The translations under genes and the position numbers were made by a program. Positions 4,120 to 34,429 of a stretch of 40,000 nt of DNA are shown here, piece by piece. The notes beneath the pieces were generated by a model. That model was given only the letters and a program-made list of their open reading frames with translations. It was not told the DNA's origin and did not search any database. The number at the start of each line of letters is the position of its first letter. Position 1 is the first letter of the stretch. The stretch comes from Pseudomonadota bacterium (GTDB lineage: Bacteria; Pseudomonadota; Gammaproteobacteria; Pseudomonadales; Halieaceae): positions 382,296 to 422,295 of the forward strand of contig JBCDIW010000002.1 of the NCBI GenBank assembly GCA_038748515.1. The letters are read 5' to 3'.

Positions 4120-7100
4120 TCAGCGAAAGCTTCGCGGTTTTACACCCAGCTCCCCAAGGGCCTGCGAATGATCAAAGAGGGCGCCGGCAACGATGTGCGT
4201 CACGCCGTCTTTTTTCTGCAGTGTTCCTTTCACAAGCAGTAGCCGGCCTTTCATCAACGCTTCGCGGAACTGCACCTGAACGCCGGGCCAGACCACCACG
4301 TTGTTATTGCCCGTCTCATCTTCCAGGGTAAGGAAAAGAACGCCGGACGCCGTGCCCGGACGCTGTCGACAGGTGACGAGCCCGGCGATACGCACAAAGC
4401 GTCCGTCGCCGAGGGCTTCGAGATCCCGATTCCGCTTGCACTGGGTGAAGGGCGCACGCTCGCGCAGCAATGCCAGGGGATGGGCGCGCAGGCTGAGCCC
4501 CGTGCTCTGGTAATCAGCGACCACCGCTTCGGCCACGGCTGGGGCTTCGAGTTCGACCGCATCGCTGAGCTCCGAAGATGATGCCTGGCGTTCGTGTCCG
4601 AGGAGCGGACGCTCTGGTTCCAATGCCATCACCTGCCAGCGTGCCTGGTGGCGGTTGCCGCTAAGGCTGGCGAGGGCGTCGGCATCCACCAGCGCTTCCA
4701 TGGCGCCCTTGTCGAGCTGCGCGCGGCGGCGCAGATCCGCAATCTGACGGAATGCGCCGTGCTGGCGAGCCTCCCTGATCCGCTCGGCGGCTTCCCGGGC
4801 CAGACCCTTGACCAAACGGAGACCGAGGCGGACCGGCGCTTTGTGACCGGCGCGGCCATCGTCCAGGAGCTGGTGATCCCAATCGCTGTGGTTGACGTCG
4901 ATGGCGAGCACGTCCACGCCGTGGCGTCGCGCATCCTGAATGAGCTGCGACGGCGTGTAGAAACCCATGGGCTGGCTGTTCAGCAGGCCCACGTAGAAAG
5001 CCGCCGGGTGATGGCGTTTGAGCCAGGCAGACACATAGGCGAGGAGAGCGAAGCTCGCCGAGTGCGACTCGGGAAAACCATAACCACCGAAGCCCTTGAT
5101 CTGATCGAAGAGGCGTTTGGCGTAGTCCTCCGTATAGCCGCGGCGCAGCATGCCCTGAGTGAGCTTTTGCTCGAAGGTCATCAGCTTGCTGTTGCGTCCC
5201 CAGTTGGTGATGGCGCGACGGAGCTGGTCCGCCTCGCCACCGGTAAACCCCGCGGCGACCATCGCCAGGCGAATCACCTGCTCCTGGAAGATCGGCACAC
5301 CCAGGGTGCTCTGCAGCACGCTTTTCACGGCGTCATCGGGGTAGGTGACATCCTCCAGACCCTGGCGGCGGCGCAGATAGGGATGAACCATATCCCCCTG
5401 GATCGGCCCGGGGCGCACGATGGCAATTTCGATGACCAGGTCGTAGAAGCAGGCAGGCTTGAGGCGCGGCAGCATGGTCATCTGCGCTCGCGACTCGATC
5501 TGGAACACACCCAAGGAGTCGGCCTGCTGCAGCATGTGGTAGGTGGCGCTGTCTTCGGTCGGTACGTCCTGCAGGCTGCGGATGCGCGGGTCGTAGCGCT
5601 GCACCAGATCCAGGGATTTGCGGATCGCCGAGAGCATGCCCAGGGCAAGAACGTCGACCTTGAGCAGGCCGAGGGCTTCGATGTCTTCCTTGTCCCATTG
5701 GATGACCGTGCGGTCTGCCATGCTCGCGTTCTCCACGGGCACGAGCTGGGAGATGGGGCCGCGGGAGATCACGAAGCCGCCGACGTGCTGCGAGAGGTGG
5801 CGGGGGAAGCCGAGGATCTCCTGCACCAGTTGATAGAAGAGGGTGGCGGTGCTTGTTTCGCCGTCATCGCGTTCTGTGTCGAGGCCGTGCTCGGCGAAGC
5901 GTGCTTCGAGGTCGCGCTGTTTATCCCACCAGGCCAGGGACTTGGCGAGATCGTCGATGAAGATCGGGTCCAGGCCGAGCGCCTTGCCCACGTCGCGGAC
6001 GGCACTGCGCGCGCGGTAGGTGATGATCGTGGCGGCCAGGGCGGCGCGGCGGCGCGTGTACTTTCGGTAAATGTACTGGATGACTTCCTCGCGGCGTTCG
6101 TGCTCGAAGTCGACGTCGATGTCCGGCGGTTCGTCGCGCTCGCGGGAGATGAAGCGTTCGAAGAGCAGGGAGACCTTTTCCGGTGACACCTCGGTGACGA
6201 ACAGGCAATAGCAGACCACGGAGTTCGCCGCCGAGCCGCGACCCTGGCATAGGATGCCGCGCTCGCGGGCGAAGCGGACCACGTCGTAGACCGTGAGGAA
6301 GTAGTACTCGTAGTCGAGGTCGGCGATGAGCCTGAGTTCGGCTTCTATGCGCTCGTGCACGCTCTGCGGCACGCCGCCGGGCCAGCGCCGGCTGGCGCCC
6401 TGCCAGGTCAGCTCGCGCAGGTAGCTGCGCGCATCGTAGCCTTCGGGGACGACTTCCTCGGGGTATTCGTAGCGCAGTTCATCGAGGCTGAAGCGGCACT
6501 GGCGGGCGATGCGCCGGGTCTCCTTTAGCAACTCAGGTGGGTAGAAGCGTTCGAGCTGGTTGAGGCCGCGCAGGTGCTGCTGGGCATTGGGCAGGCGGCG
6601 GCTGCCGAGTTCGGCGATGCTGCAGTTGTGATAGAGCGCGGTCATCACATCGTGCAAAGGCTTGCGCGCGGCGCTGTGCATGCGTACATCGCCGCAGGCC
6701 ACCAGGGGAAGCCCGAGGTCCTGGCCGAGCGTCTGCAATGTCCGGTAGCGACGCAGCTCATCGTTGCCCAGCAGGTAGTGCACGCCGATCCACACACGCT
6801 CGCGACACAGGCGCGCGAGCTGGCGCCCGAAACCTCGCGTGCTCTCATCGTCGTCCCGGGGCAGCCAGATCAACAGGCAGCGTTTGAGCTGGAAGATCAC
6901 GTCGCGCAGGGCCAGCTCGTACTCGCCCTTGGGGCTACGCCGCCGTCCGAGGCTGATCAGTCCCGAGAGTTCGGCATAGGCCGCGCGAGTGGGCGCGATA
7001 GCAATCAGACGCAGTCCCTCCACCAGCGTGAACTCGCTGCCGATGATCAACTGCAGGCCGCATTCCTTCGCCGCAATGTGGGCCTTTACTACGCCTGATA

Positions 7101-7242
7101 GCGAGCATTCGTCGGTAATCGCGATGCCCGCATAGCCCTTCGCCGCCGCCCCCGCGACCAGCTCTTCCGGCCGGGAAGCTCCGCGCAGGAAACTGAAGCA
7201 GGACAGGCAGTGGAGTTCGGTGTAGTACGCGGAGGAAGGCAT
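4120..7242 (-). CDS. dnaE2: Error-prone DNA polymerase III alpha-like subunit DnaE2 (ImuC)
   Basis: 1040 aa. The N-terminus YTELHCLSCFSFLRGASRPEELV (PHP domain) and overall length are typical of DnaE2 rather than DnaE1. imuA and imuB are on the same strand in this window. Confidence 0.95.
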   Translation of the reverse strand: MPSSAYYTELHCLSCFSFLRGASRPEELVAGAAAKGYAGIAITDECSLSGVVKAHIAAKECGLQLIIGSEFTLVEGLRLIAIAPTRAAYAELSGLISLGRRRSPKGEYELALRDVIFQLKRCLLIWLPRDDDESTRGFGRQLARLCRERVWIGVHYLLGNDELRRYRTLQTLGQDLGLPLVACGDVRMHSAARKPLHDVMTALYHNCSIAELGSRRLPNAQQHLRGLNQLERFYPPELLKETRRIARQCRFSLDELRYEYPEEVVPEGYDARSYLRELTWQGASRRWPGGVPQSVHERIEAELRLIADLDYEYYFLTVYDVVRFARERGILCQGRGSAANSVVCYCLFVTEVSPEKVSLLFERFISRERDEPPDIDVDFEHERREEVIQYIYRKYTRRRAALAATIITYRARSAVRDVGKALGLDPIFIDDLAKSLAWWDKQRDLEARFAEHGLDTERDDGETSTATLFYQLVQEILGFPRHLSQHVGGFVISRGPISQLVPVENASMADRTVIQWDKEDIEALGLLKVDVLALGMLSAIRKSLDLVQRYDPRIRSLQDVPTEDSATYHMLQQADSLGVFQIESRAQMTMLPRLKPACFYDLVIEIAIVRPGPIQGDMVHPYLRRRQGLEDVTYPDDAVKSVLQSTLGVPIFQEQVIRLAMVAAGFTGGEADQLRRAITNWGRNSKLMTFEQKLTQGMLRRGYTEDYAKRLFDQIKGFGGYGFPESHSASFALLAYVSAWLKRHHPAAFYVGLLNSQPMGFYTPSQLIQDARRHGVDVLAIDVNHSDWDHQLLDDGRAGHKAPVRLGLRLVKGLAREAAERIREARQHGAFRQIADLRRRAQLDKGAMEALVDADALASLSGNRHQARWQVMALEPERPLLGHERQASSSELSDAVELEAPAVAEAVVADYQSTGLSLRAHPLALLRERAPFTQCKRNRDLEALGDGRFVRIAGLVTCRQRPGTASGVLFLTLEDETGNNNVVVWPGVQVQFREALMKGRLLLVKGTLQKKDGVTHIVAGALFDHSQALGELGVKPRSFR

Positions 7243-7263
7243 AGTGACAAGGGCGTGGGACGG

Positions 7264-8274
7264 TCACTGGGAGTCCAGCGGGCTGATCACGCCCATCGCG
7301 CCGCGGCCAAGCACGTGCGTGTAGATCTCGGTGGTTTTTACGTCCGAGTGGCCCAGCAGCTTCTGGATAGTCCTCAGATCGTAGCCCTGCTGGAGCAGGC
7401 GGGTCGCGAAGCTGTGTCGGAACGTATGACAGCGCACAGGTTTGTGTATGCCGGCCTGTAAGCGTGCTTTGGTAACGGCTTTGCGCAGAGAGGTTTCGTG
7501 AAGGTGATGGCGTCTATGCACCCCCGAGCGAGGATCGACACCGATACGAGTCGAGGGAAACAGGAACTGCCAGCCCGTCTCGCGGGCGGCCTTCGGGTAC
7601 TTACGGGCCAGGGCGTAGGGCATATAGACCTCACCGTAGCCGTCTTCGATATCGCGCTTGTGAAGCTTCTGCACCAGGGCAACCTGCGCTCGCAGCGGCT
7701 CCTCAAGCGCTGCCGGCAGCAGAGTCACGCGATCCTTATCGCCCTTTCCGGATCGCACCGTGAGTGTATTGAAATCAAAGTCGAGGTCCTTGATTCGCAG
7801 ACTCAGAAGCTCGTTCAGTCGCAGCCCCGACCCATAAAGCAGCTCTGCCATCAATCGGTGGTTGGCTGACATCTGGGCAAGGATTCGAAGTACCTCGGCG
7901 TGAGTAAGCACTACCGGCAGGCGACGCCTCAATCTGGCTTTGCTGAATTCCAGTGAATCCAGACTCATGCCCAGGAAGCGCACGAACAGATAGATCAACG
8001 CGTTTAGCGCGATGCGCTGTGTTGCTGGAGAGCACTGACGCTCATTGGCGAGGTGGCTCAGATACTGCTCGACATGCTCTGCAGAGAGAGTCGCGGGATG
8101 CTGCTTGCCGTGGAAGCGAATGAAGCGAGTGATCCAATGTATGTAGGTCTTTTCCGTCTTCCATGCATACCCACCGTCCCGAAGATGACGGCGTAGCTGA
8201 TCCAGGAGCCGCCTGGGCTGCGCCGGTACCTTGGGTGGAACGTCCGGAATGTTGTTTGATTGAGTACTGTACAT
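7264..8274 (-). CDS. intI: Integron integrase IntI (tyrosine recombinase)
   Basis: 336 aa. It has tyrosine recombinase boxes (HTFRHSFATRLL, LLGHSDVKTTEIYTHV) and the IntI-specific insertion around ALARKYPKAARETGWQFLFPS. It is divergent from an attC-bounded cassette array. Confidence 0.95.
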   Translation of the reverse strand: MYSTQSNNIPDVPPKVPAQPRRLLDQLRRHLRDGGYAWKTEKTYIHWITRFIRFHGKQHPATLSAEHVEQYLSHLANERQCSPATQRIALNALIYLFVRFLGMSLDSLEFSKARLRRRLPVVLTHAEVLRILAQMSANHRLMAELLYGSGLRLNELLSLRIKDLDFDFNTLTVRSGKGDKDRVTLLPAALEEPLRAQVALVQKLHKRDIEDGYGEVYMPYALARKYPKAARETGWQFLFPSTRIGVDPRSGVHRRHHLHETSLRKAVTKARLQAGIHKPVRCHTFRHSFATRLLQQGYDLRTIQKLLGHSDVKTTEIYTHVLGRGAMGVISPLDSQ

Positions 8275-8282
8275 ATATACAG
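8267..8282. promoter_or_regulatory. LexA (SOS) box CTGTACATATATACAG overlapping the intI start codon
   Basis: Perfect gammaproteobacterial CTGT-N8-ACAG palindrome with an AT-only spacer and TA flanks (TACTGTACATATATACAGTA). The intI ATG (8274-8272, minus strand) lies inside it. A TATACT -10-like hexamer overlaps the upstream half-site on the minus strand. Confidence 0.8.
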
Positions 8283-8479
8283 TATAGCTGGGTTTGGGAT
8301 GCTCGTAAGGGGTTTTTCAGCGTGCCTTGGCATACTTCTCCGCTAGTGCGTTGAAATTGCGCAAGTTTTTGCGATGACGACGGTCGAATTCGATGTATCA
8401 GCGTTGGGTACTACGTTCGTTGTTTCTGCCGGGTTAATCTGGGCATACAGTAAGGTATTGAAACATGCAGAAAATTTGC

Positions 8480-8554
8480 CGGGAGTTTGCCTGTGCGAGA
8501 AAAGATAGGGAGAAATGTATTAACGTGCTTTGTCTCGTTAATTAGCTGTTATGT
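8480..8554 (+). other. Putative attI recombination site (core GTTATGT at 8548-8554); left boundary approximate
   Basis: This is the first GTTRRRY core, between intI and the first cassette ORF (ATG at 8564), in an AT-rich spacer. A second GTTAATT lies at 8536-8542. Confidence 0.45.
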
Positions 8555-8561
8555 GTCACAG
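8546..8561. promoter_or_regulatory. Weak LexA-like palindrome CTGTTATGTGTCACAG overlapping the attI core
   Basis: It matches the CTGT-N8-ACAG skeleton, but the spacer (TATGTGTC) and flanks deviate from the consensus. About one chance match is expected in 40 kb. Confidence 0.25.
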
Positions 8562-8563
8562 CG

Positions 8564-8887
8564 ATGAAGCTACTCTTCGTTTGTTCGGAAAATCGCTTGC
8601 GAAGCCCAACAGCAGAAGAGGTCTTCTCTTCCTACCCAGGCGTAGAGGCCATTGGCTGCGGCACTAACGCTGATGCAGAAACACCTCTTTCCGGTGATCT
8701 GATTGAGTGGGCTGACGTTGTCCTTGTCATGGAGAAAACTCATCGCAGCAAGGTGGCGAAGAAGTATCGAGACCTCCTCAAGACGAAGAGGCTCGTGTGT
8801 CTGGATATACCTGACAATTATGCCCGCATGCAGCCAGAACTAGTGCATCTGTTAGAAGCTAAGGTTCCGAAGTATGTGCGTCTGTAG
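8564..8887 (+). CDS. Cassette 1: low-molecular-weight phosphotyrosine phosphatase-like protein
   Basis: 107 aa. The N-terminal LFVCSENRLRS fits the CX5R(S/T) P-loop of LMW-PTP/ArsC-like phosphatases. Confidence 0.65.
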   Translation: MKLLFVCSENRLRSPTAEEVFSSYPGVEAIGCGTNADAETPLSGDLIEWADVVLVMEKTHRSKVAKKYRDLLKTKRLVCLDIPDNYARMQPELVHLLEAKVPKYVRL

Positions 8888-8894
8888 CGGACAC

Positions 8895-8970
8895 ATAACA
8901 AGTCAAGGCTGCAAGGGCGCTTCGCGCCGGGACGTCCGCTGCGCGGCCGCCCCAGCTTGAAGCGTTAGGC
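8895..8970 (+). repeat. attC 1 (type A)
   Basis: ATAACAAGTCAAGGCTGCAAGGGCGCTTCGCGCCGGGACGTCCGCTGCGCGGCCGCCCCAGCTTGAAGCGTTAGGC. R'' ATAAC pairs with R' GTTAG, and L''/L' pair with an extrahelical G. Confidence 0.9.
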
Positions 8971-8990
8971 ATCACCTTAGTCGTCTAAGT

Positions 8991-9335
8991 ATGTGGATTT
9001 ATCTGAAAGCTTTTACCTTCTGTCTCTGTGTGGCGATATTCACCAGCGCTATGCTTGCTGGGTCTGTCTCATTGCTGAAGCCTGAGCAAGCAAAACTTGC
9101 TGAGATCCCCTTGTCGCTTGCTTTCCTATTGCCTATGAATGCAGCTTGTGCGTTCTTGGTCGCTCGAAACCTTGTGGTTGAATCACCTCGCTCGCCGTTG
9201 ATGTTGTCGCTTGGCTTGGCTGTTGCATACCTTCTTCTTCTGCCAATCCAAAGCATCGGGAGTGTGGTTTCTTATACGGGGGTGATTGTGGCTATCGTTC
9301 TGGGGGCTCGGCCTTGGCGAGGCGCCGATGCCTAA
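8991..9335 (+). CDS. Cassette 2: small integral membrane protein, unknown function
   Basis: 114 aa with 3-4 hydrophobic helices. It fills the cassette between attC1 and attC2. Confidence 0.55.
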   Translation: MWIYLKAFTFCLCVAIFTSAMLAGSVSLLKPEQAKLAEIPLSLAFLLPMNAACAFLVARNLVVESPRSPLMLSLGLAVAYLLLLPIQSIGSVVSYTGVIVAIVLGARPWRGADA

Positions 9336-9407
9336 CAAGTCAAGGCTGCAGGGGCGCTTCGCGCCGGGACGTCCGCTACGCGGCCGCCCCAGCTTGAAGC
9401 GTTAGGT
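9332..9407 (+). repeat. attC 2 (type A)
   Basis: CTAACAAGTCAAGGCTGCAGGGGCGC...CAGCTTGAAGCGTTAGGT, near-identical to attC1. Confidence 0.9.
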
Positions 9408-9852
9408 GTCCCAGGTGAGTCCGATGACTCTAGGCGTTCTTGCTGTCCCTGTAGTTTTACTGGGGGCGATTTTTCTCGGCCCGGTGGTCTATAAGGCTTT
9501 CGACCCAGTTTGGGATTTGGTTATGAACAAATACTTATCGAACGTGTGGGGCGATTGGTTCACATACTCAATGCTAATTGCAATCGGGTTCGCAAAAGTA
9601 ATCTCCTTGGCCGGCCTGTCCACGTTATTGCCGGCAATCGTTCTGGCGTACATGCAGCTTGACGGAAGAAGTGCCGCGGTTAGTAGCGTCGTTACAGGCT
9701 CCATAGTTGCGTCAACCGCCTATCTAAGCGGAGTGTGGTCCTTCTACGTTCCGTTTCACTCTTCGCTATGGTTTGGTTTCGCTCTGATTACTTGTTTAGT
9801 TGCTCTGGCTATGTGGGTTGAAGCTAGGAGTTTTCGTTGGCTGCTGAAATAA
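9406..9852 (+). CDS. Cassette 3: integral membrane protein, unknown function (GTG start inside the attC2 core)
   Basis: 148 aa with about 4 hydrophobic helices. It fills the cassette. Confidence 0.55.
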   Translation: MSQVSPMTLGVLAVPVVLLGAIFLGPVVYKAFDPVWDLVMNKYLSNVWGDWFTYSMLIAIGFAKVISLAGLSTLLPAIVLAYMQLDGRSAAVSSVVTGSIVASTAYLSGVWSFYVPFHSSLWFGFALITCLVALAMWVEARSFRWLLK

Positions 9853-9855
9853 CAC

Positions 9856-9940
9856 CTAACAAGTCAAGGCTGCAAGGGCGCTTCGCGCCGGGACGATCAA
9901 ACCGCTACGCGGTTTGCCGCCCCAGCTTGAAGCGTTAACG
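9856..9940 (+). repeat. attC 3 (type A, longer central loop)
   Basis: CTAACAAGTCAAGGCTGCAAGGGCGCTTCGCGCCGGGACGATCAAACCGCTACGCGGTTTGCCGCCCCAGCTTGAAGCGTTAACG. Confidence 0.85.
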
Positions 9941-10231
9941 AGCGCATATCCCTCTGGCCAGGGTGAGAGGCAATCGGGTCGTATGACACCTCTGTTTAGT
10001 TATCCAATGATTAGCTTCTCAGTGGTCTCAAAACTAGTACGGTTCGTTCCTGGAGCCACATCTCCGGCCGGAGCTATCCTTCAGTCCGGTCGCTTCAGGC
10101 GGCGGGGTAGCGCGCTCAAAGATCTCTCTCTAATTTGCAGGACAGCGCGATTGCGCGGCGGATCCGCTCGGGCGTGGCCTTCGCATACGCTGCGGCAGGT
10201 TGGTCGCCTCGAAGTCCTTCCCAGCGCTGCG

Positions 10232-10317
10232 TTAACCAGTGAAGGCTGCAAGGGCGCTTCGCGCCGGGACACCAAAACCGCTACGCGGTTTCGGCGCCCC
10301 AGCTTGAAGCGTTATGC
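10232..10317 (+). repeat. attC 4 (type A variant)
   Basis: TTAACCAGTGAAGGCTGCAAGGGCGCTTCGCGCCGGGACACCAAAACCGCTACGCGGTTTCGGCGCCCCAGCTTGAAGCGTTATGC. Confidence 0.85.
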
Positions 10318-10330
10318 GTCCCTCTAGCGC

Positions 10331-10756
10331 ATGATTTGCGTCGAAACGCGGAGTTTCCAACAGCAGATTGAGGTGCTGAAGCACTTAGCAAGTGATCGTG
10401 CGCTGATGGTTTGTGCGTGGTTGTATCCCGAGTCGGAACTCCAAAGTATCGCTGGCTTCGATACTGACTTGGTTCCGGTCGGGCTACAGCCTGTTACCAC
10501 GTACGGTGACAACCATCAGCCGCGCCATACCACGCTGTGTATCGCCTCCAACGATGCGTTTGAAGCCTTCTCCGATGCGGAGTCCGAAGTGCGTGCAAAT
10601 TGCGATTGCCTCGCGCTCTACACGGAAGGCGAGTCGTCTTGGTATGCGTCAGCCATTGGGCACGAAGGCATGTGTTTGCTCAACACAGAAGCAACGCCGT
10701 CAGCTTTGAGAAACGCTGGCTTCACCATATCTAACGAGGCGCCGCCGTGGTGGTGA
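10331..10756 (+). CDS. Cassette 5: hypothetical cytoplasmic protein
   Basis: 141-aa ORF filling the cassette. No motif recognised; the protein ends ...NEAPPWW. Confidence 0.5.
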   Translation: MICVETRSFQQQIEVLKHLASDRALMVCAWLYPESELQSIAGFDTDLVPVGLQPVTTYGDNHQPRHTTLCIASNDAFEAFSDAESEVRANCDCLALYTEGESSWYASAIGHEGMCLLNTEATPSALRNAGFTISNEAPPWW

Positions 10757-10759
10757 CGC

Positions 10760-10835
10760 ATAACAAGTCAAGGCTGCAAGGGCGCTTCGCGCCGGGACGT
10801 CCGCTACGCGGCCGCCCCAGCTTGAAGCGTTATGC
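10760..10835 (+). repeat. attC 5 (type A)
   Basis: ATAACAAGTCAAGGCTGCAAGGGCGC...CAGCTTGAAGCGTTATGC. Confidence 0.9.
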
Positions 10836-10853
10836 GGCTTGAACTAGGCCCTC

Positions 10854-11087
10854 ATGCAATTTGAGATCATTGGGGCTATTGAATCCGCTGAAACTTTTGC
10901 AACGGGTCGGGGTATACGCGAGCTCCCGCGCCTCAAGCGCATTTATGGCAATGGACGATAGCGTAAGCGAAAGGGAGAGGCGACCATCCGCCTTACGGAT
11001 GGCACTATTCTTAGAGCGGAGATACACTGGTACGAAGCCACGGGTATCGGGCGCAAAGAGTACAAGATCAAGCGCCTACTGGACTGA
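10854..11087 (+). pseudogene. Cassette 6 gene A: small conserved protein interrupted by an in-frame TAG at 10959-10961 (probable TGG to TAG)
   Basis: ATG at 10854 gives MQFEIIGAIESAETFATGRGIRELPRLKRIYGNGR, then TAG. The same frame continues RKRKGEATIRLTDGTILRAEIHWYEATGIGRKEYKIKRLLD to the TGA at 11085. The GR-W-RK context and the HWYEA.GIG..E.KIK tail resemble a small protein family I recall from cassette and TA contexts. Confidence 0.5.
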
Positions 11088-11088
11088 T

Positions 11089-11310
11089 ATGACCATTCCA
11101 AAATACGTAATCTGCATCGAAAACACCGACTACGAGGCTTCACTGGAAGTGCGGAAGATCTACGAGGTGGTTCCGGACGCTCGGGCTCAGACTCTCGGGC
11201 ATCTACGTGTCATTGATGAGTCTGGTGAAGACTATATGTACCCCGCTGAGCGCTTCGTTGATGCTCACCTATCTAAGTCTGTCGAAGAGGCAGTCGCAAA
11301 CGCCGCATAA
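11089..11310 (+). CDS. Cassette 6 gene B: small acidic protein (73 aa), possible partner of gene A
   Basis: The ATG lies 1 nt after the gene A stop. MTIPKYVICIENTDYEASLEVRKIYEVVPDARAQTLGHLRVIDESGEDYMYPAERF... reads as a globular protein. The upstream part of the 149-aa track ORF is a different-frame artefact. Confidence 0.5.
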   Translation: MTIPKYVICIENTDYEASLEVRKIYEVVPDARAQTLGHLRVIDESGEDYMYPAERFVDAHLSKSVEEAVANAA

Positions 11311-11394
11311 CAAGGCCAGGCAGCTCGCTCCCTTCGGTCGCCGGACGTCAAAATCGCTACGCGCTTTTGCCGCCCGCTGCTGGCAGCGTTAAGC
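11307..11394 (+). repeat. attC 6 (type B)
   Basis: ATAACAAGGCCAGGCAGCTCGCTCCCTTCGGTCGCCGGACGTCAAAATCGCTACGCGCTTTTGCCGCCCGCTGCTGGCAGCGTTAAGC. Confidence 0.85.
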
Positions 11395-11419
11395 GGCTGC
11401 ATCCACTACTCGTGCCAAC

Positions 11420-11656
11420 GTGAAAGTCACCAAGTACTTCGAATCTCTGTCTGCTCGACCTGATCGTGCGGGCATCAAACCTGAGTGGATCCAGCGAGTT
11501 GTGCGTGCTCCCGAAAGAGAGCATATTCAGGCCGACGGCCGCATACGACGGTGGGCTCCTGTGCCGGAGATGCAAGGCCGTTACTTGCGTGTAGTCCTGC
11601 TTCCCGACGGCGAAACAGTTCACAACGCGTTTTTTGATAGGGGCTACAAGCCGTGA
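11420..11656 (+). CDS. Cassette 7 gene 1: DUF4258-like putative toxin
   Basis: 78 aa. The ...GRYLRVVLLPDGETVHNAFFDRGY tail is typical of DUF4258. Its stop overlaps the next start (GTGA at 11653-11656). Confidence 0.65.
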   Translation: MKVTKYFESLSARPDRAGIKPEWIQRVVRAPEREHIQADGRIRRWAPVPEMQGRYLRVVLLPDGETVHNAFFDRGYKP

Positions 11657-25247: not shown

Positions 25248-25249
25248 GC

Positions 25250-26551: not shown

Positions 26552-26563
26552 TAAAATCGAGGC

Positions 26564-27028
26564 ATGTCTCTTGAACTGAAAGTGCCCCCGCCTCTGGTGC
26601 TGCTGATCTGTGTCGCGGCGATGTTTACCGTCCGGGAGGTGCTGCCGGGTTTCGATTTGCCGCTGTCCCGGTCCCTGGCTAGCTGGGTCGCTAGCGGCCT
26701 CGCCGGATTCGGCATTCTTATTGCGCTGCTGGGTGTCGGAGAATTTCGCAAAGCGACGACTACCGTCGATCCACGTCACCCCGAAAAGGCTTCGGCGTTG
26801 GTGTGCAAGGGCGTGTATCGCTACACGAGGAATCCTATGTATCTCGGCATGCTACTCTGCCTGGCGGGCCTGTTCGTTCACCTTCGCAGTCTTCCCACCG
26901 GGCTCTTGCTTCCATGCTTCGTGCTCTACATGAATCGCTATCAGATCGCGGCAGAGGAACGGGCCATTCAGGTGCGCTTCGGTGATTCCTACGCTGATTA
27001 TCGGACGCGCGTGCGTCGATGGATCTGA
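26564..27028 (+). CDS. Isoprenylcysteine carboxyl methyltransferase (ICMT/PEMT) family membrane protein
   Basis: The GVYRYTRNPMYLGMLL motif and the C-terminal EERAIQVRFGDSYADYRTRVRRWI. Confidence 0.8.
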   Translation: MSLELKVPPPLVLLICVAAMFTVREVLPGFDLPLSRSLASWVASGLAGFGILIALLGVGEFRKATTTVDPRHPEKASALVCKGVYRYTRNPMYLGMLLCLAGLFVHLRSLPTGLLLPCFVLYMNRYQIAAEERAIQVRFGDSYADYRTRVRRWI

Positions 27029-27050
27029 TGCGCCTGTGTCATAGAAAACT

Positions 27051-27566
27051 ATGTCACAGAAAACCGTGGCGTCGGTGAGCGGACGCAACATAAAGCGCCT
27101 CTCTCCTGCGGCTCTGCTGATCGTCCTGCTGGTCGGCCTGTGGGAAGGCCTGTCGGACACGGCGGAGCAGGCAGCGACATCGTCGTCTGCTGCCTTGGAG
27201 GGGTCGGATGCTGTCAGCCCGTCCTCAGGCAACACCGATGCCCTTATTGAAAGGGCGTTTCGCGAACGCCGCGGTGACCTGCAGGTTTCCGGCGAGGGCC
27301 GAGTCGTCCGAGTTCTACCCGATGACACGCAAGGCAGCCAGCATCAACGCTTCCTCCTCGAACTCGCATCGGGGCAGACCCTGCTCGTGGCGCACAATAT
27401 CGACCTGGCCCCGCGTATTCCTGAACTACGTCGGGGTGATCGCGTGGCCTTTTACGGCGAGTATGAGTGGAATGAGCGCGGCGGTGTGATGCACTGGACC
27501 CATCACGATCCAAGGGGCAGGCACCCAGACGGTTGGCTCGAGCACGAGGGTCGTCGCTACGAGTAG
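27051..27566 (+). CDS. DUF3465-family secreted protein
   Basis: ...VLPDDTQGSQHQRFLLELASGQTLLVAHNIDLAPRI....GDRVAFYGEYEWNERGGVMHWTHHDP is the DUF3465 signature. Confidence 0.7.
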   Translation: MSQKTVASVSGRNIKRLSPAALLIVLLVGLWEGLSDTAEQAATSSSAALEGSDAVSPSSGNTDALIERAFRERRGDLQVSGEGRVVRVLPDDTQGSQHQRFLLELASGQTLLVAHNIDLAPRIPELRRGDRVAFYGEYEWNERGGVMHWTHHDPRGRHPDGWLEHEGRRYE

Positions 27567-27595
27567 GCGCTAACTCACCTTACTTCGGAGACTTC

Positions 27596-28144
27596 ATGAA
27601 AATGCCATACCCCTTCTCGACCAGGCTGCTGGCCATGCTCGGCATCGCCGTTGGCTTGTCCGCCTGCCTGGGAATGCCGGACGGCGTTGAACCGGTAGAG
27701 AACTTCGATGCGGACCGCTATCTGGGAAAGTGGTACGAGATTGCGCGCCTCGATCACAGCTTCGAGCGAGGACTCAATAATGTTACCGCCGAGTACAGTC
27801 TGCGCGATGACGGTGCGATCCGCGTCGTAAACAGCGGCTACGATAGCGAGGAGGGAGAGTTTGATTCCATAGAAGGGGTCGCGCGCTTCGTTCGCGAAGA
27901 CGATGAGGCCTATCTCAAGGTATCTTTCTTTGGTCCATTCTATGGATCCTACGTTGTCTTCGAACTGGAGCGCGAGGATTACAGCTACGCGTTTGTATCC
28001 GGTTTTAACCGCAGTTTTTTGTGGTTGCTCGCTCGCGAACCTGAAGTCAGTGAAGAACTTCGCGCAGCGTTTCTTGAACGTGCAGGGGAGCTTGGTTTCG
28101 ACGTCTCAGAGGTGCTTTGGGTGGACCACAGTCCTCCCGGCTAG
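27596..28144 (+). CDS. blc: Outer-membrane lipocalin Blc
   Basis: Lipobox LSAC, then YLGKWYEIARLDHSFERGL (the bacterial lipocalin signature). ATG at 27596. Confidence 0.85.
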   Translation: MKMPYPFSTRLLAMLGIAVGLSACLGMPDGVEPVENFDADRYLGKWYEIARLDHSFERGLNNVTAEYSLRDDGAIRVVNSGYDSEEGEFDSIEGVARFVREDDEAYLKVSFFGPFYGSYVVFELEREDYSYAFVSGFNRSFLWLLAREPEVSEELRAAFLERAGELGFDVSEVLWVDHSPPG

Positions 28145-28271: not shown

Positions 28272-28862
28272 TCAGCGGCGATCGCTGACTTCGATGAGCT
28301 CCCAACTGCCGGGCTGACCATCGCGCTCGACGTAGCGATAGCGGATTCTTGCCCCGTGCGTGACGTCGTCCAGCTCGTCGAGGTTGGGGTTGCTGATGAA
28401 CTTTACGCGGCGCCGACTCGAGCTTCGATTCAGCGAGCAAGTCCCCTCGCTGCCGCGGTAGGCTTTGTCGAAGCGCACATACATCGGCTGACCGATCTGC
28501 TCGGCCTTACGCATGTCTACGCGGCCTTCGAGAATGCAGTCTTCCGTGATCTGCGCGTTGGCATTCAACGCGGCCACGGTGAGCGCGAGCGTGAGAAAGG
28601 TCAGGGTGATGGCGCGCCAATACGGGGAGCCCGTCTCATCCCTGCGGGCGCCCAATGGAATGGAGAGCGCTGCGGGTGCTGCGGATAATGATGTCGGTTT
28701 GCTTGACCCGCGCCGGGCGCTGGCAGAAAAGCGTCGACTGCGGTCAGGGGAGCGATCAGTGGCAGCAGGCCGGTTTTGGCCGCCGCAGCTATCGTAACTT
28801 TGCCTGTGATCGCGATTCATGCGATTGATCTGATTATTCATCGAAGTTCTCCTTCGCCTCAC
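28272..28862 (-). CDS. Hypothetical secreted protein; true start probably internal (for example the TTG at 28655)
   Basis: The hydrophobic signal-like WRAITLTFLTLALTVAALNANA is followed by a roughly 95-aa domain. The N-terminal 70 aa of the track ORF are Arg/Ser-rich and unlikely to be coding. Confidence 0.4.
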   Translation of the reverse strand: MRRRRTSMNNQINRMNRDHRQSYDSCGGQNRPAATDRSPDRSRRFSASARRGSSKPTSLSAAPAALSIPLGARRDETGSPYWRAITLTFLTLALTVAALNANAQITEDCILEGRVDMRKAEQIGQPMYVRFDKAYRGSEGTCSLNRSSSRRRVKFISNPNLDELDDVTHGARIRYRYVERDGQPGSWELIEVSDRR

Positions 28863-29261: not shown

Positions 29262-30686
29262 TCAGGCAAAGAGGCCGTGGAGAAACCAGCGCTGCAGCCG
29301 GCGCTCGTGGTACACCCAGAAGCGCTGCCCCTGCTCATTGCGGGCGACAAAGTAGTCGCGGCTGGTGCCACCCTGCCACCAGCCGTCCTCGATGCGCTCC
29401 GGGCCATACACGAGCGTGAGGCGACTTCCCCAGAAAGAGAGACGGTCTTCCCGCTGGCCCAGGGTTTCGGGGGTGGACAGTAACCAGAAGGGGCGTTGCG
29501 CCGCTGCGGGTGTCGCACCCGAAGGCGCGTCACCGGGCGCGACACTGGCGTAGCTGTCCTCCGGGAGATGTCCATCCCGACAGCGCAGGCTGCTCACAGC
29601 CCGCGATCCCAGGCGATTGCTGAGCAGGTCCACCAGCTTTGCCGGCGACACGCCCTGGCCTCGCGCACCGAAGAGATCGACAGGCTCCGGCTCGGCGCTC
29701 TCCAGCTGCATTACGCAAAGTTGTACCAGTTCCACTTCATCGCGAAAAGGGCGACGCTCAAGGCGCAGTCGTGTAAGCCGGTACCAGTCCGCACGGGTGG
29801 TGCCCGGGGTGCTGGCGCGGACTTCGAGCTCCTCCTGGTATTCGCCGATGCCCCGGAAACGCCACAGCAGCAGGCGTGTCTGGAGCTGGCGCTGGCGCAG
29901 ATAGTTCTCCAGGGACTCCAGGAGTTGTTCGAGAGCGGGCCCCAGCTCATCCTGATTGCGGACCGGGTAGCCCAGGGGGTAGCTGTCCTGGAAACAGCTC
30001 GGCGGCTCGAAGTGCACCACGGCCTCGATACGTTCTCCGCGTAGATGCTGCAGCAGTTCGCTGAAGTCGCGGCCGCCGCGTTTCCCCAGGGCAGCGACCG
30101 GCAGGGCGAGGATATCTCCCAGCCTGTGCAGCCCGCTGCGCTCCAGGGCACTGAACTGCGGATCAAGGGGGCTGAGCAGACTGCTGGGCAGCTCGGCGAG
30201 ACGCTCTTCGAGCGGCGTATCTACATTACTGCGCCCCGCGCTGCCATGGGACAGGGCCCAGGCTGCCAGGGGGGTCTGCGCTGCCGCTATTTCCACGCTG
30301 AAGCCCCGGCTCGCGAGGCCGCGTCGGCAGTAGCGGAGTATGGCGTCGAGGCCGCCGAAGAGACGAAGGGAGCCCGCAACCTCGAGCATCAGGCAGTCAC
30401 CGCGGAAGCTGTACAGGTGCGGTGTTACGCCGTAGGCCCAGCAGGACAGGTCTTCGAGAGCCTGCTGCTCTGCGCCTGGGTCCCGAGCGAGCAGTTGCAG
30501 GGGCTGCTCGCCGGCGAGCGCCCGGGCGCTCGCCGGATCCATGCCCGCCTCGATGCCGAGCAGGCTTGCAGCGGCGTTCATGGCATGAACGCGCTGTTGC
30601 TCAAGCACGGCGACCGCCAACGGCCGCCGGTGGGGCAGGCACTGCACCGCCAGTTCCGGCAGACGCAGGCAGAGCCAGAGTTGCAT
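29262..30686 (-). CDS. imuB: ImuB, Y-family polymerase-like accessory protein of the DnaE2 mutasome
   Basis: MQLWLCLRLPELAVQCL...AVAVLEQQRVHAMNAAA...GIEAGM is the typical ImuB N-terminus. About 474 aa, with a LexA box about 20 nt upstream; imuA and dnaE2 are on the same strand. The start is taken as the ATG at 30686. Confidence 0.9.
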   Translation of the reverse strand: MQLWLCLRLPELAVQCLPHRRPLAVAVLEQQRVHAMNAAASLLGIEAGMDPASARALAGEQPLQLLARDPGAEQQALEDLSCWAYGVTPHLYSFRGDCLMLEVAGSLRLFGGLDAILRYCRRGLASRGFSVEIAAAQTPLAAWALSHGSAGRSNVDTPLEERLAELPSSLLSPLDPQFSALERSGLHRLGDILALPVAALGKRGGRDFSELLQHLRGERIEAVVHFEPPSCFQDSYPLGYPVRNQDELGPALEQLLESLENYLRQRQLQTRLLLWRFRGIGEYQEELEVRASTPGTTRADWYRLTRLRLERRPFRDEVELVQLCVMQLESAEPEPVDLFGARGQGVSPAKLVDLLSNRLGSRAVSSLRCRDGHLPEDSYASVAPGDAPSGATPAAAQRPFWLLSTPETLGQREDRLSFWGSRLTLVYGPERIEDGWWQGGTSRDYFVARNEQGQRFWVYHERRLQRWFLHGLFA

Positions 30687-30704
30687 GGGTACTTCCATCA
30701 AATA

Positions 30705-30720
30705 CTGTACATATATACAG
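30705..30720. promoter_or_regulatory. LexA (SOS) box CTGTACATATATACAG upstream of imuB
   Basis: Perfect CTGT-N8-ACAG within the near-palindrome TCAAATACTGTACATATATACAGTATTTGA. It lies 19 nt upstream of the imuB ATG. Confidence 0.85.
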
Positions 30721-30759
30721 TATTTGATTTCCGCCGGATTGGCGAACCCGCGAGCCGCC

Positions 30760-30966
30760 TCAGCTCATATTGCGTTCAAGTAAATAGGTGATCGCGGTCT
30801 TGATAACGAAGCCCAGAATGCCTAGCGCCAGGGCAAGGTAGAGGATCATCGTGCCGAAGACCCCCGCATTGCTCTTGCGCGCGAGGTCCCAGACGATGAA
30901 GACCATGAACAGGATCAGGCCGCCCACGCCAATGGTCACCCCGTATTCCGTGAGCCAGGCATCCAT
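30760..30966 (-). CDS. DUF2788-family small membrane protein
   Basis: 68 aa with two helices. FIVWDLARKSNAGVFGT fits the DUF2788 pattern. Confidence 0.65.
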   Translation of the reverse strand: MDAWLTEYGVTIGVGGLILFMVFIVWDLARKSNAGVFGTMILYLALALGILGFVIKTAITYLLERNMS

Positions 30967-30967: not shown

Positions 30968-31405
30968 TCAGGAGCTGACCTGAACCGCAGCCTGCAGCGA
31001 GCTCTCGGCGATCAGGGAATTGGTGATCAGACAGCCCTGCTCGGCTTTTTGGAGCAGCTTTTTCGCTTTCTCTATGTCAGTCCCCGCCGGGACCTCCAGT
31101 GTGGCTTCGACGTTGATTCCGGTAAAGCGCATGGCCCGTTCAATACGATCAAGAGTACCCGTCACGTGGCATTCCAGATGCATCCACTCCAGCTTTGACG
31201 CCTGCGCCACGGCACGAAAGGTGAGGATGAAGCAATCGGCAACCGCGCCGACGAGCAGAGTCTCCGGCGACCACTTATCTCCAGGACCGCCGAACTCCGC
31301 CGGCGGTGCCGAGACGATCTCCGACAGGCCTGGTGCCGTGAGTGCCACATGGTTGTCGCTCGTGGCGGAACCACTGACTCTGTAGTTATGGGGAAAGGCT
31401 TCCAT
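30968..31405 (-). CDS. osmC: OsmC/Ohr-family peroxiredoxin-like protein
   Basis: 145 aa. ...FGGPGDKWSPETLLVGAVADCF... and ...AEQGCLITNSL carry the two conserved Cys of the OsmC family. Confidence 0.85.
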   Translation of the reverse strand: MEAFPHNYRVSGSATSDNHVALTAPGLSEIVSAPPAEFGGPGDKWSPETLLVGAVADCFILTFRAVAQASKLEWMHLECHVTGTLDRIERAMRFTGINVEATLEVPAGTDIEKAKKLLQKAEQGCLITNSLIAESSLQAAVQVSS

Positions 31406-31508
31406 AAAGACGTCTCCTGGCGGCTTGTCTGGCTAGCGGGCAGCGACGGCGCTGCTACTGCGGAGCGGCGTTATAGCCGGTGGAGAGGCGGGATGCTAGT
31501 AGGCTTTA

Positions 31509-31613
31509 GCCAAAGGTACCTGCCAAAAGTACCTGCCAAAGGTATTTGCTAAAGGAATTGGCCAAAAGCCATTTGCCAAAGGTTTCGGCCCGAGGTGTTG
31601 GTCCAAAGTAACG
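31509..31613. repeat. Degenerate 13-bp tandem array (GCCAAAGGTACCT-like, about 8 units)
   Basis: Read directly: gccaaaggtacct gccaaaagtacct gccaaaggtattt gctaaaggaattg gccaaaagccattt gccaaaggtttcg gcccgaggtgttg gtccaaagtaacg. Confidence 0.85.
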
Positions 31614-32250
31614 ATTGCCTGCTACTGATGTAAGCGGAAATTGTCCGCAAGCTTTTCGCCACAAACAACGCCCCTTGCGGTAGCGGTACACGGTTAGCAA
31701 GAGCGTCTTCACCGGATCTTACAGTCTCATCAATTCCGGCCATGAACTCACACAGTCTTAATGGAGTATCCTTGATTGGCAGGGTCCGGCCTGAAGAAAA
31801 TCGCACTGAGTCGCAGCAGGAGTTGCTTCAGTCCATGGATAGCTTCACTGTTCAGACTTCGACCACTATGCTGCTCATCTAGTCCGTCCCACGCATTCGC
31901 TGCGCAACGGTCGGGATATATCGGTGGTTAACTTCTTGGTTTCATGTTGGCCAAATGTTGGCCTCATCGCGCTCCCAAGGACACTTCTCATCAATGCTGT
32001 CTTTGTTGGAAGCGGGTGTCGTCGAGTAGAAAGTCGAAACCTCTGTCGGCGACCCGAAGCGGAGTATGGCCATTGCAACGAGTTCTACACCGCCGAGCCT
32101 TGAGCGCTGTTGAGCGAGTTGCTTGCCGTTTTCTCGGCCGCTTGCACTAGACTTCTGCCTCACTTGGTGCGGGAATATTTAGCCGTTTTCAGTACGTTAA
32201 ACGCTCTGTTTATTTAACGGAATTAGTCGGAGATTAGAGGGGTATCTATT

Positions 32251-32949
32251 TTGCAAGAGCAGCTCAGAGCGCAAATACTGACTGATCCACCCAAGTTTCA
32301 TTTCTGGCACGGCAAACATTCGGCTGGGGGGTTCTTGAACAGTGATTTCGAGGACTTTGATGAGCTTCTAAAACTTCTGCCACCGGGCGCCGAATCCCGG
32401 AATTTCATTGAAACCGGTGCGGGACTGTCGACACTTTGGTTCTTGGCGAATGAGTTCCGAGTAGTCTCATTTACACTGGAAAAAATTGCAGATGCTGTCA
32501 ATGGCTACCTGCGTGATGGATACCCTGAACTAGCTGGCCAGTGGACATGCTTCACCGGAAAGAGTGAAAGGAACCTCGTGCCGTTCACAAATGGCGAGAA
32601 GCAAGATGCTTTCGACATCGCATTGATCGATGGAAATCATGCTATCGCCACGGTGTTCGCCGACTATGTTGGATTGAATCTTTGTCTTAAGAAAGGAGGG
32701 CTTCTGATCGTCGACGACGTGCGGCTTCCCGGTCCCAGATTACTTGATCAACTCCTGATGCAATTGACTGATGACTGGGAGCATGTATGGACCCAAGAAA
32801 GAGGAAAATGGAAGTGCTACAGGAAAACAACGGACGCCGACGTCCGGATAGGAAACTGTAAGGAGTTCTCCTTTTATGTGCCCCCACCGGGGCAACGAAG
32901 CCTCTTGCGCAGAGTAAAAACGAAGGCGGGTAAGCTGTTGGGACTATGA
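32251..32949 (+). CDS. Class I SAM-dependent methyltransferase (O-methyltransferase family 3-like)
   Basis: 232 aa. The IETGAGLSTLW (motif I) and DIALIDGNH...GGLLIVDDV pattern. Low-GC codon usage and a TTG start. Confidence 0.65.
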   Translation: MQEQLRAQILTDPPKFHFWHGKHSAGGFLNSDFEDFDELLKLLPPGAESRNFIETGAGLSTLWFLANEFRVVSFTLEKIADAVNGYLRDGYPELAGQWTCFTGKSERNLVPFTNGEKQDAFDIALIDGNHAIATVFADYVGLNLCLKKGGLLIVDDVRLPGPRLLDQLLMQLTDDWEHVWTQERGKWKCYRKTTDADVRIGNCKEFSFYVPPPGQRSLLRRVKTKAGKLLGL

Positions 32950-33120
32950 ACCGAGAACAACCGGTAACCGAGTTTACGGCTGGTGTTCTACCGTAGCCAA
33001 TCCATTGGCACGGACTTGTGGTCCCCCCAATGAATAAGCGCGACGTGCAGCAGCCTGGTGACTTGCGATGTGGTTTTCGAGCCTCGCGTAACTTGTAAGA
33101 CAGGCCCCTGCCAAAGAGCA

Positions 33121-33254
33121 CAGTCCCGAAGGTACAGTCCCGAAGGTACAGTCTCGAAGGTACAGTCTCGAAGGTACAGTCTCGAAGGTACAGTCTCGAA
33201 GGTACAGTCTCGAAGGTACAGTTCCGAAGGTACAGTCTCGAAGCTACAGTCTGA
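33121..33254. repeat. 14-bp tandem array CAGTCTCGAAGGTA, about 9.5 units
   Basis: Read directly. Five central units are identical, and the edge units carry single substitutions (cagtcccgaaggta, cagttccgaaggta, cagtctcgaagcta). Confidence 0.95.
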
Positions 33255-33335
33255 TCGGAGACTGACCGGGTATATGCGCTCGAAATGGAGTCTGAAAAGT
33301 CGTAGCGCTCACGAATAGCAGTGCTTCTCGCAACG

Positions 33336-34388
33336 TCAGGATACGGCACGAGTCCCCTGGGCAGCGGAGTCGGCCGGCAATTCCCAGAGCTGCGGCTGGT
33401 GGGGAATGTCGTCTTCCGGCGGCAGGTAGACATTGACGTCGTACAGACCGCTGCGCTGTTTGAGGATCTGCACCTCGCGGTAGGCCTGCATCTGTAGCCG
33501 CAGCGAGGCCGGTGCGTGCTGCTGGGCCACCTCCCGGGGGCGGAACAGTACCGCCAGCGTGTCGCCGCGCGCCGCGGCCAGCTGCAGGCGTCGCAGCTCC
33601 GCATAGCGGTACTCGCTCTTACCGAGCCAGCTGAATACGGCGCTGCAGGTGCCGCTGCGCAGCGCCTGTTCGGTACTCCACAATTGTTCTTCCCGATCCC
33701 GGGGATGGACGAGGAGTACCTGTCGCGTATCGATATCGCGGGCGGCCAGCAGCGGTGCGTAGGGGGTATAGGGCGCGCCGATAAAGGCCTGCCAGCGGGA
33801 CTGTTCGCTCAGAGCCTGCATGGCGGGGAGGAAAAGGCCCATGGCGCCCATGCCCGATGCATCCGTGAGGACCTCGATGCAGGTACCCAGGGGCCAGCCG
33901 CCCTCACAGAGACGTGCATCCAGGGCCGCAAAGCCCGTGCTCAGGTGGGGGTGGCTGTGGTGATCGTTGTTGGCGGCCTTTGCTGTGCTGCCCTGGTCCT
34001 TCTCGTCACGACCGCTAAAGCCGTCAAAGCTAAATTCCGAGCCGACACCATGCTGGGCATGAATCCCAAGCCAGGTGTCACGCCGCCTGATGACCTGCTG
34101 CAGGGCCTCGGGGAGTTCTCGGGGCTTCTTTCTGGTCGCTGCTTTTGCTGCTGTTTTTGCTGCTGTTTTTGCTGCTGCTTTTGTCGCTGCCCGGGTCGCT
34201 GCTTGTGTCGCTGCCATCGGCGCTTCCCGAGTCAGTTCGCTGGGATCAGCCGGGCCGGTCTGTGCGGCAGTCTGCGTGGAACCCCCATCGTCGATATTGC
34301 CGAAGAGTGCGGAAACCGTGGCGGGGGCGCGGCCCGAAGCACGGGAGGGCTGGCTCTCCTGGGACTCAAGGTCAAAATCGCGATGCAT
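33336..34388 (-). CDS. imuA: ImuA (SulA/RecA-fold-like) with a long low-complexity N-terminal extension
   Basis: The C-terminal part, GFAALDARLCEGGWPLGTCIEVL....GMGAMGLFLPAM...AFIGAPYTPYAPLLAARDID..QVLLVHP...EQLWSTEQALRSGTCSAVFSWL, is typical of ImuA. The start is taken as the ATG at 34388 (MHRDF...) because a LexA box lies inside the longer track ORF. Confidence 0.8.
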   Translation of the reverse strand: MHRDFDLESQESQPSRASGRAPATVSALFGNIDDGGSTQTAAQTGPADPSELTREAPMAATQAATRAATKAAAKTAAKTAAKAATRKKPRELPEALQQVIRRRDTWLGIHAQHGVGSEFSFDGFSGRDEKDQGSTAKAANNDHHSHPHLSTGFAALDARLCEGGWPLGTCIEVLTDASGMGAMGLFLPAMQALSEQSRWQAFIGAPYTPYAPLLAARDIDTRQVLLVHPRDREEQLWSTEQALRSGTCSAVFSWLGKSEYRYAELRRLQLAAARGDTLAVLFRPREVAQQHAPASLRLQMQAYREVQILKQRSGLYDVNVYLPPEDDIPHQPQLWELPADSAAQGTRAVS

Positions 34389-34413
34389 GCTGCAGATCCT
34401 CTCAGGCAAAATA

Positions 34414-34429
34414 CTGTATATAAAAACAG
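34414..34429. promoter_or_regulatory. LexA (SOS) box CTGTATATAAAAACAG upstream of imuA
   Basis: TACTGTATATAAAAACAGTA matches the gammaproteobacterial consensus. It lies 26 nt upstream of the proposed imuA ATG. Confidence 0.8.

Follow-up and report, generated by a model that had tools for sequence, protein, structure and literature searches.

How do the three genes of one SOS mutagenesis cassette come to lie in three units along a 30-kb stretch, each with its own LexA box, and which gene does the last of these boxes serve? ImuA, ImuB and DnaE2 form a mutasome established in the literature for Mycobacterium, Caulobacter and Pseudomonas, and in the Pseudomonas/Caulobacter form their genes make up a single contiguous operon. 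The window analysed here, by which we mean the whole 40,000-nucleotide stretch (positions 382,296 to 422,295 of contig JBCDIW010000002.1, assembly GCA_038748515.1), is a high-GC gammaproteobacterial chromosome segment of the Halieaceae (OM60/NOR5-type) in which imuA, imuB and dnaE2 are parted by gaps of 2.6 kb and 22 kb. The best explanation, and one that we consider probable, is that an ancient chromosomal integron lies inside the mutasome locus, that the three LexA-box units are ancestral to the family, and that the integrase gene intI and dnaE2 form a single SOS-induced unit.

Mutasome genes and LexA boxes

On the minus strand of the window, leuS-lptE-holA is followed by imuA, imuB and dnaE2, that is, by the canonical order imuA-imuB-dnaE2. 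The genes and boxes at issue are as follows.

33336–34388, minus strand: imuA, 350 amino acids, RecA/SulA-like domain in the C-terminal half
29262–30686, minus strand: imuB, 474 amino acids, Y-family homologue without catalytic acidic motifs
7264–8274, minus strand: intI, intact integron integrase gene
4120–7242, minus strand: dnaE2 (imuC), ATG 21 bp past the intI stop codon on the same strand
34414–34429, minus strand: LexA box 1, CTGTTTTTATATACAG on the minus strand, 25 bp upstream of the imuA ATG
30705–30720, minus strand: LexA box 2, CTGTATATATGTACAG, 18 bp upstream of the imuB ATG
8267–8282, minus strand: LexA box 3, CTGTATATATGTACAG, preceded by TATACT and overlapping the start of intI

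The dnaE2 product matches NF004225 ('error-prone DNA polymerase') at 1387 bits against a cutoff of 939 and contains the PHP, Pol3 alpha, finger, HHH and OB domains of the error-prone subfamily of C-family polymerases. The imuA product matches the ImuA model NF033429 at 201 bits (cutoff 150) over a domain that fills its C-terminal half, and a comparison with PDB sequences returned weak RecA and PA3008 matches; it is a RecA/SulA-like protein of the kind found in the ImuABC mutasome. ImuB scores weakly but above cutoff against Pfam IMS (32 bits versus 23.2), with a further weak match to IMS_C, and its closest homologues carry the JGI name 'protein ImuB'; a search of PDB sequences gave no match to it, and NCBIfam no model above noise. 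Where active Y-family polymerases have their catalytic DxD and SIDE motifs, this protein reads LCLRLPEL (at its N-terminus) and MLEV (at the motif III position), a Y-family fold without the catalytic acidic residues. The initial annotation, made from the sequence alone, had placed all three genes correctly as to coordinates, strand and order, and the profile matches and homologue names uphold its naming of the 33336–34388 and 29262–30686 products as ImuA and ImuB homologues.

The first ~130 amino acids of ImuA are a low-complexity extension in which Ala, Lys and Thr abound; 12-nt tandem repeats (34135–34224) encode it. In relatives ImuA is 253–315 amino acids long and the alignment begins only at about residue 20–90, so the extension is variable.

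The motif CTGT-N8-ACAG occurs four times in the window, as compared to 0.51 expected, and none of 100 shuffles held four or more. When an AT-rich centre is required, exactly three matches are left, at 8267, 30705 and 34414. We predict these to be LexA operators: firstly, two of them lie 18–25 bp upstream of imuA and imuB, and the third at the start of intI; secondly, their number is above chance; thirdly, they are conserved in relatives, the imuA box standing at the same position in L001–L006, L016 and L017 (L numbers designate the loci of relatives). The remaining match, at 8546, was rejected as an SOS box, having a GC-richer centre and coinciding with the crossover core GTTATGTGTC of the attI site. 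Boxes 2 and 3 are identical 16-mers; a duplication was considered and discarded, their flanks being unrelated beyond the 20-nt LexA consensus.

The integron and the attC-free block

The initial annotation had filled the ~22 kb between imuB and dnaE2 with an accessory gene block and a complete integron. Both are present, and intI, attI and 12 attC sites make the integron complete; it accounts for only 8.4 kb, however, leaving ~13 kb without attC, and parts of the block occur in relatives that lack the integrase.

8283–8552, no strand: attI region
8553–15407, plus strand: cassette array with 12 attC sites
13504–14463, minus strand: IS110-family transposase gene inserted in the cassette array
15945–28144, plus strand: attC-free block, ~20 small genes of unrelated functions on the cassette strand, ~12 kb

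The intI product matches TIGR02249 at 436 bits (cutoff 265), and its translation contains the box I R, HxxR, H and Y motifs together with the IntI-specific insert, which identifies it as an integron integrase. Beside it, attI has its crossover core GTTATGTGTC at ~8549, and the same core ends the last attC. The attC sites lie at 8893, 9330, 9854, 10230, 10758, 11305, 11845, 12279, 12953, 14664, 14984 and 15330 (plus strand) and bound cassettes that read away from intI. They belong to one family, with RYYYAAC...GTTRRRY ends and scores of 44–99 bits in a covariance model (R1) built from these same 12 sites.

Two features of the array concern its contents. The IS110-family gene adjoins a degenerate attC (14664–14743, with CATACAAG in place of CATAACAAG) and resembles attC-targeting IS1111-type elements; insertion sequence (IS) elements also lie beside intI in L009 and L012, and the one in L009 parts intI from its LexA box. 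The cassette at 12250–12698 encodes a RelE/StbE-family toxin (12414–12698) and an overlapping upstream small open reading frame (ORF), a toxin-antitoxin cassette such as is usual in sedentary chromosomal integrons.

The attC-free block holds genes for DUF3224, metallophosphoesterase, acetolactate-synthase-like (ALS-like), YbaK, racemase, two GNAT, thioesterase, rhodanese, cupin, DUF2164, PEMT, DUF3465 and lipocalin proteins, among which the lipocalin, rhodanese, PEMT and ALS-like genes recur in relatives. Calling this block a cassette array was tried and rejected: with filters off, the covariance model found no attC in 15.4–29.4 kb (best match 11 bits), and inspection of the intergenic sequences of the block revealed zero attC remnants. 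The imuB flanks of relatives likewise gave nothing convincing with the model and filters off.

Might the whole of 8.3–29.2 kb still be a single integron array, its 15.9–28.1 kb part consisting of fossil cassettes with decayed attC, such that the separation of imuB from dnaE2 would be entirely the work of the integron? Some twenty small, unrelated genes on the cassette strand, with typical cassette functions (GNATs, cupin, lipocalin, DUFs), would fit such a fossil; a like pattern is seen in L015, on the far side of the active arrays, and in L018, where it spans the integrase-less gap of 13.8 kb and one intergenic sequence resembles a mutated attC (7.7 bits). Against this stand the two null attC results in the block, overlaps of 4–8 bp between several of its genes, which are operon-style and leave no room for attC, and the synteny of the lipocalin, rhodanese, PEMT and ALS-like genes across several genera, as in ordinary core genes. 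We regard a fossil array as a credible but rather doubtful reading of the block.

A 13-nt unit is repeated four times in tandem after the cupin gene (25605–25656). Between the block and imuB lies one more gene on the mutasome strand.

28272–28862, minus strand: conserved ORF after imuB, 196 amino acids, no family match

This ORF is kept after imuB in L001–L004, and a 132-amino-acid ORF takes its place in KT71 (Congregibacter litoralis) and L017; the imuB unit may include this ORF as a further member.

Integrase and polymerase behind one box

The initial annotation had assigned one SOS box to each of the three gene fragments. Its positions were accurate, but the third box belongs to intI: it overlaps the first intI codons, its in-box ATG opens the intI reading frame, and the whole of intI lies between it and dnaE2. 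We conclude that this box is the predicted SOS operator of the intI promoter (Pint), and that dnaE2 could use it only by read-through from intI, because intI intervenes. Within 7200–8266 there is no LexA-like motif, and between the intI start and dnaE2 we found no terminator or consensus promoter.

The arrangement recurs well beyond this genome. In seven of eight genome contexts of IntI homologues, dnaE2 follows intI directly on the same strand with a gap of 2–60 bp: 2 bp in Halioglobus japonicus and L009, 10–24 bp in L010, L011, L012 and L015, and 60 bp in Haliea sp. E17. A metagenome scan yielded 80 IntI relatives, with 11 evaluable contigs at IntI identities of at least 61% and 68 at less than 58%; dnaE2 comes after intI in 9 of the former and in 0 of the latter. 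Across loci the identities of IntI and DnaE2 fall together, as expected if the two genes were inherited jointly and vertically, and in each of the seven related genome loci whose sequence extends more than ~1 kb beyond intI on its upstream side, that stretch contains related attC sites. Together, the 21-bp gap, the shared strand, the lack of a box or terminator between the genes and the conserved pairing predict an intI-dnaE2 bicistron, read as one transcript from a LexA-controlled Pint.

Several observations count against this prediction, and they are also what an accidental neighbourhood would produce, that is, one in which the two genes are transcribed separately, dnaE2 from a promoter, as yet unrecognised, within the 3' end of intI, and the adjacency has no regulatory or functional meaning. 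Four relatives (L013, L020, L028 and L029) have a second LexA box between intI and dnaE2, directly upstream of the latter, suggesting that dnaE2 can be controlled independently of intI; this two-box form may be the older state. Congregibacter brevis, the lone exception among the eight genome contexts, has a related intI that is not beside dnaE2. A promoter within the intI 3' end is conceivable and would be beyond the reach of a consensus scan: between 3900 and 8700 such a scan found nothing, neither a cassette promoter Pc nor even the expected Pint, and is hence insensitive here, just as the consensus promoter and terminator scans were uninformative for all three units. An accidental neighbourhood nonetheless seems unlikely to us. 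In most genomes the two genes are only 2–28 bp apart, too close to fit an operator between them; no LexA-like motif lies in 7200–8266, and every dnaE2 studied so far is under LexA control (PMC3323433); and in three lineages that have no intI the box is found directly ahead of dnaE2.

A stronger proposal would make intI-dnaE2 a functional module, in which the error-prone ImuB/DnaE2 machinery owes its joint induction with the integrase to a part in integron recombination, and selection keeps the single transcript across the Halieaceae. Such machinery might, for example, supply the DNA synthesis that resolves the atypical Holliday junction with single-stranded attC, or mutagenise newly captured cassettes. 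We consider this improbable.

Under the bicistron that we favour, the operator at the intI start would be the only SOS operator available to dnaE2 in this genome. DNA damage and the ensuing cleavage of LexA would derepress imuA (with osmC-DUF2788 in relatives), imuB and intI-dnaE2 in parallel, and intI and dnaE2 would be induced together because the sole SOS operator of dnaE2 overlaps the intI start. ImuA, ImuB and DnaE2 would then assemble into the mutasome, while the integrase, encoded on the transcript that also yields DnaE2, would reshuffle cassettes.

The boxes have further properties of their own. In the Congregibacter-type integrons (the window, L007, L010, L011, L012 and L019) an ATG in the intI frame lies inside the LexA box. 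The TATACT hexamer is so placed that intI transcription would begin at about the A of this ATG, and the window, L011 and L012 have no other canonical in-frame intI start ahead of the conserved domain, which points to a leaderless intI mRNA, with LexA sitting over its start codon. The intI genes of the Halioglobus type begin instead (MDD(V/I)R) 20–30 nt downstream of the box.

Box 2 is the centre of a near-perfect 32-nt palindrome (30697–30728). More generally, the boxes of imuB and of Halioglobus-type intI stand at the centre of longer perfect palindromes that add as many as 13 pairs on either side, at 30697–30728 of the window, at ~752–793 of L008, at ~9917–9958 of L018, and in L015, L009, L016, L017, L022 and L027. 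The arm sequences vary among genomes and yet stay complementary, covariation that goes further than LexA binding would require and suggests either that a hairpin or cruciform is under selection or that repair perfects the palindromes.

Family-wide layout, history and known counterparts

A genome scan with ImuB identified six loci (L001–L006), all from Halieaceae, at ImuB identities from 96% down to 46%. In all six, leuS-lptE-holA-imuA is followed after 1.3–3.5 kb by imuB, with osmC in the gap in four of them; a LexA box stands ahead of both imuA and imuB, and in none is dnaE2 beside imuB. C. litoralis KT71 has the same layout, with imuA apart from imuB and dnaE2 not beside imuB. Indeed, all Halieaceae relatives examined have imuA apart from imuB, usually by osmC-DUF2788, and imuB apart from dnaE2. 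In the window the genes that flank and part imuA and imuB are these.

36069–38714, minus strand: leuS
between leuS and holA, minus strand: lptE
34482–35507, minus strand: holA
31406–33335: low-GC islet (~50% GC, 1.9 kb) between imuA and osmC, present only in this genome and L001
32251–32949, plus strand: Methyltransf_24 gene within the low-GC islet
30968–31405, minus strand: osmC, co-oriented with imuA and imuB
30760–30966, minus strand: DUF2788 gene, 68 amino acids, co-oriented with imuA and imuB

The imuA–imuB gap thus comprises osmC, the DUF2788 gene and the islet (~2.6 kb). Seven of nine relatives have osmC in this gap. In L016 and L017, osmC-DUF2788 directly follows imuA and the gap is ~0.8 kb; the tight form imuA-osmC-DUF2788-box-imuB is found in C. 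litoralis KT71 and in the metagenome contig L017. As judged from this synteny, the imuA–imuB split is an old insertion of two genes, osmC and DUF2788, and the methyltransferase islet alone is recent, since L001 is the only other genome to carry it.

How far imuB lies from dnaE2 differs greatly among genomes: 22 kb in the window versus 2.4 to 37 kb in relatives. It is 2.4 kb in L017 (with lipocalin and rhodanese genes), 9.3 kb in L002 and 13.8 kb in WSDMB12 (L006/L018), all three without intI; on one 1.9-Mb contig with intI, 36.6 kb lie between imuB and intI(-dnaE2). The initial annotation had proposed a synteny comparison of just this kind, naming unlinked genes in integron-less and islet-less relatives as the outcome that would tell against its account of the split, and this is the outcome that we obtained (L002, L017 and L006/L018). 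We conclude from synteny that the three-unit layout is ancestral to the family and not an event in this genome, because relatives without integron and islet still have the three genes unlinked.

The integrase-less relatives also bear on what became of intI, for in all three of them (L002, L017 and L018) a LexA box lies directly upstream of dnaE2. In L018 the order is LexA box, intI 5' leader, the 9-codon ORF ATGGACGATATCCGCCTCGTCGACAGCTGA (MDDIRLVDS*), dnaE2. At its 5' end this ORF matches the beginning of Halioglobus-type intI, and at its 3' end it can be aligned with the final 32 nt of the L015 intI (10953–10984). The ends of intI share the short direct repeat ATGG(A/G)CG(A/T)TATCAG, and because this repeat is found at both ends we read L018 as a clear case of repeat-mediated deletion of intI. 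In L002, 24 nt (GCTATACTGTATATATGTACAGTA) are identical to the start of the window's intI and the in-box ATG continues in frame into dnaE2; in L017 the box is retained, together with a sequence that resembles the intI stop region. These scars indicate that the integrase-less state is derived in L018 at least, and probably in all three. It is less likely that L002, with its box directly before dnaE2 and no intI, represents the ancestral form into which an integron was later inserted downstream of the box; the deletion scar of L018 and the occurrence of intI-dnaE2 in more distant genera both argue against this order.

The initial annotation had instead proposed that two invasions in this lineage broke up a contiguous imuA-imuB-dnaE2 operon (one by osmC, DUF2788 and the methyltransferase islet, the other by the accessory block with the integron), each fragment keeping or gaining a box, an account for which the canonical order and strand, the three boxes and the truly recent 1.9-kb islet common only to L001 can be adduced, but which is very improbable in view of the split without integron and islet in L002, L017 and L018, of osmC or osmC-DUF2788 in the imuA–imuB gap family-wide, of intI-dnaE2 pairing in Halioglobus and Haliea at 61–68% IntI identity, which makes the pairing ancient, and of a third box that is the intI box. 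It is largely refuted as a recent event, and as deep ancestral history it merges with the explanation that we prefer.

In that preferred explanation, an early ancestor of the Halieaceae would have come to carry a sedentary chromosomal integron between imuB and dnaE2. With intI reading into dnaE2, the array would grow away from intI towards imuB, pushing imuB and dnaE2 apart. The present-day units would be, firstly, box-imuA, with osmC-DUF2788 next in relatives and the 1.9-kb low-GC islet interrupting here; secondly, box-imuB plus the small conserved ORF; and thirdly, box-intI-dnaE2. Three points temper this order of events: the direction of evolution is read from few genomes with no explicit tree, the contiguous imuABC outgroup state is taken from the literature and not from other Cellvibrionales genomes, and the deletion scars in L002 and L017 are weaker than the one in L018.

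Some observations along the locus stand apart from this history. The low-GC islet holds no convincing coding sequence besides the Methyltransf_24 gene, and contains a 14-nt repeat (ACAGTCTCGAAGGT) in 9.5 copies at 33120–33252 and a 13-nt repeat in 3.6 copies at 31509–31555. In L014 (positions 1–10000), a distant Halieaceae genome, the imuA–imuB gap has grown to 8.7 kb, with ~9 small cassette-like genes on the opposite strand (GNAT, GFA, EthD, YbjN and DUF6713 among them) and no detectable attC. At the edges of the locus, an 8-nt tandem repeat (GTTCAGCG) occurs in 8 copies just 3' of the dnaE2 stop codon (window 3901–4014), and a 116-nt tandem unit in 2.4 copies upstream of leuS (window 39140–39416).

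Of the routes to rapid genetic change that the SOS response induces, the two best known are the shuffling of integron cassettes and translesion mutagenesis by ImuABC, which have so far been treated as separate members of the regulon. Here they are physically interleaved, and in most Halieaceae apparently under one operator and probably on one transcript, making this locus a natural system in which to ask whether integron and ImuABC are functionally coupled. It would also be a clear case of an operon split by a sedentary integron in which selection has kept every part under LexA, with dnaE2 inheriting the operator after loss of the integrase. Finally, imuB ... dnaE2 offers a fixed chromosomal landmark against which to follow, across a bacterial family, how a chromosomal cassette array grows, decays and is lost.

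How far does the locus resemble known systems? Split imuABC SOS cassettes were reportedly described by Abella in 2004 and by Erill in 2006, and SOS-controlled integron integrases, it is said, by Guerin in 2009. In Mycobacterium tuberculosis, imuA'-imuB and dnaE2 sit at separate LexA-controlled loci. According to PMC3901139, citing Erill 2006, all configurations of imuA, imuB and dnaE2 occur, including three separate loci each with an SOS box, and PMC3919608 calls the cassette 'contiguous or split'. The view of the initial annotation that the architecture had not been described does not hold, a three-way split with an SOS box at each part being already in PMC3901139. Like such cassettes, the present locus has the same three genes with a LexA box before each unit; it differs in keeping canonical order and orientation on one 30-kb stretch, in its osmC-DUF2788 and integron spacers, and in a dnaE2 unit that opens with intI.

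SOS control of intI is likewise known (Cambray 2011, PMC3108266), and the window is alike in having a LexA box that overlaps the intI promoter or start. It differs in that dnaE2 comes within 2–28 bp after intI on the same strand, which would bring an error-prone polymerase under the Pint operator as well; PMC3108266 makes no mention of a polymerase or operon. The integron itself is like sedentary chromosomal integrons in its homogeneous attC family, its toxin-antitoxin cassettes and its IS110-family insertion. In the Vibrionaceae, the occurrence of the mutagenesis cassette has been found to track the superintegron's chromosomal location, a correlation ascribed to one reorganisation event (Sanchez-Alberola 2012, PMC3323433). 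That is another association of two SOS-controlled systems, but it is a correlation at genome level only, with no integron inside the cassette and no intI-dnaE2 pair, unlike here. Our literature search, which was limited and is no proof of novelty, found no description of such a pair. Thus, of the features compared, the three-way split with three boxes was already known, and the new point is the pairing of intI with dnaE2.

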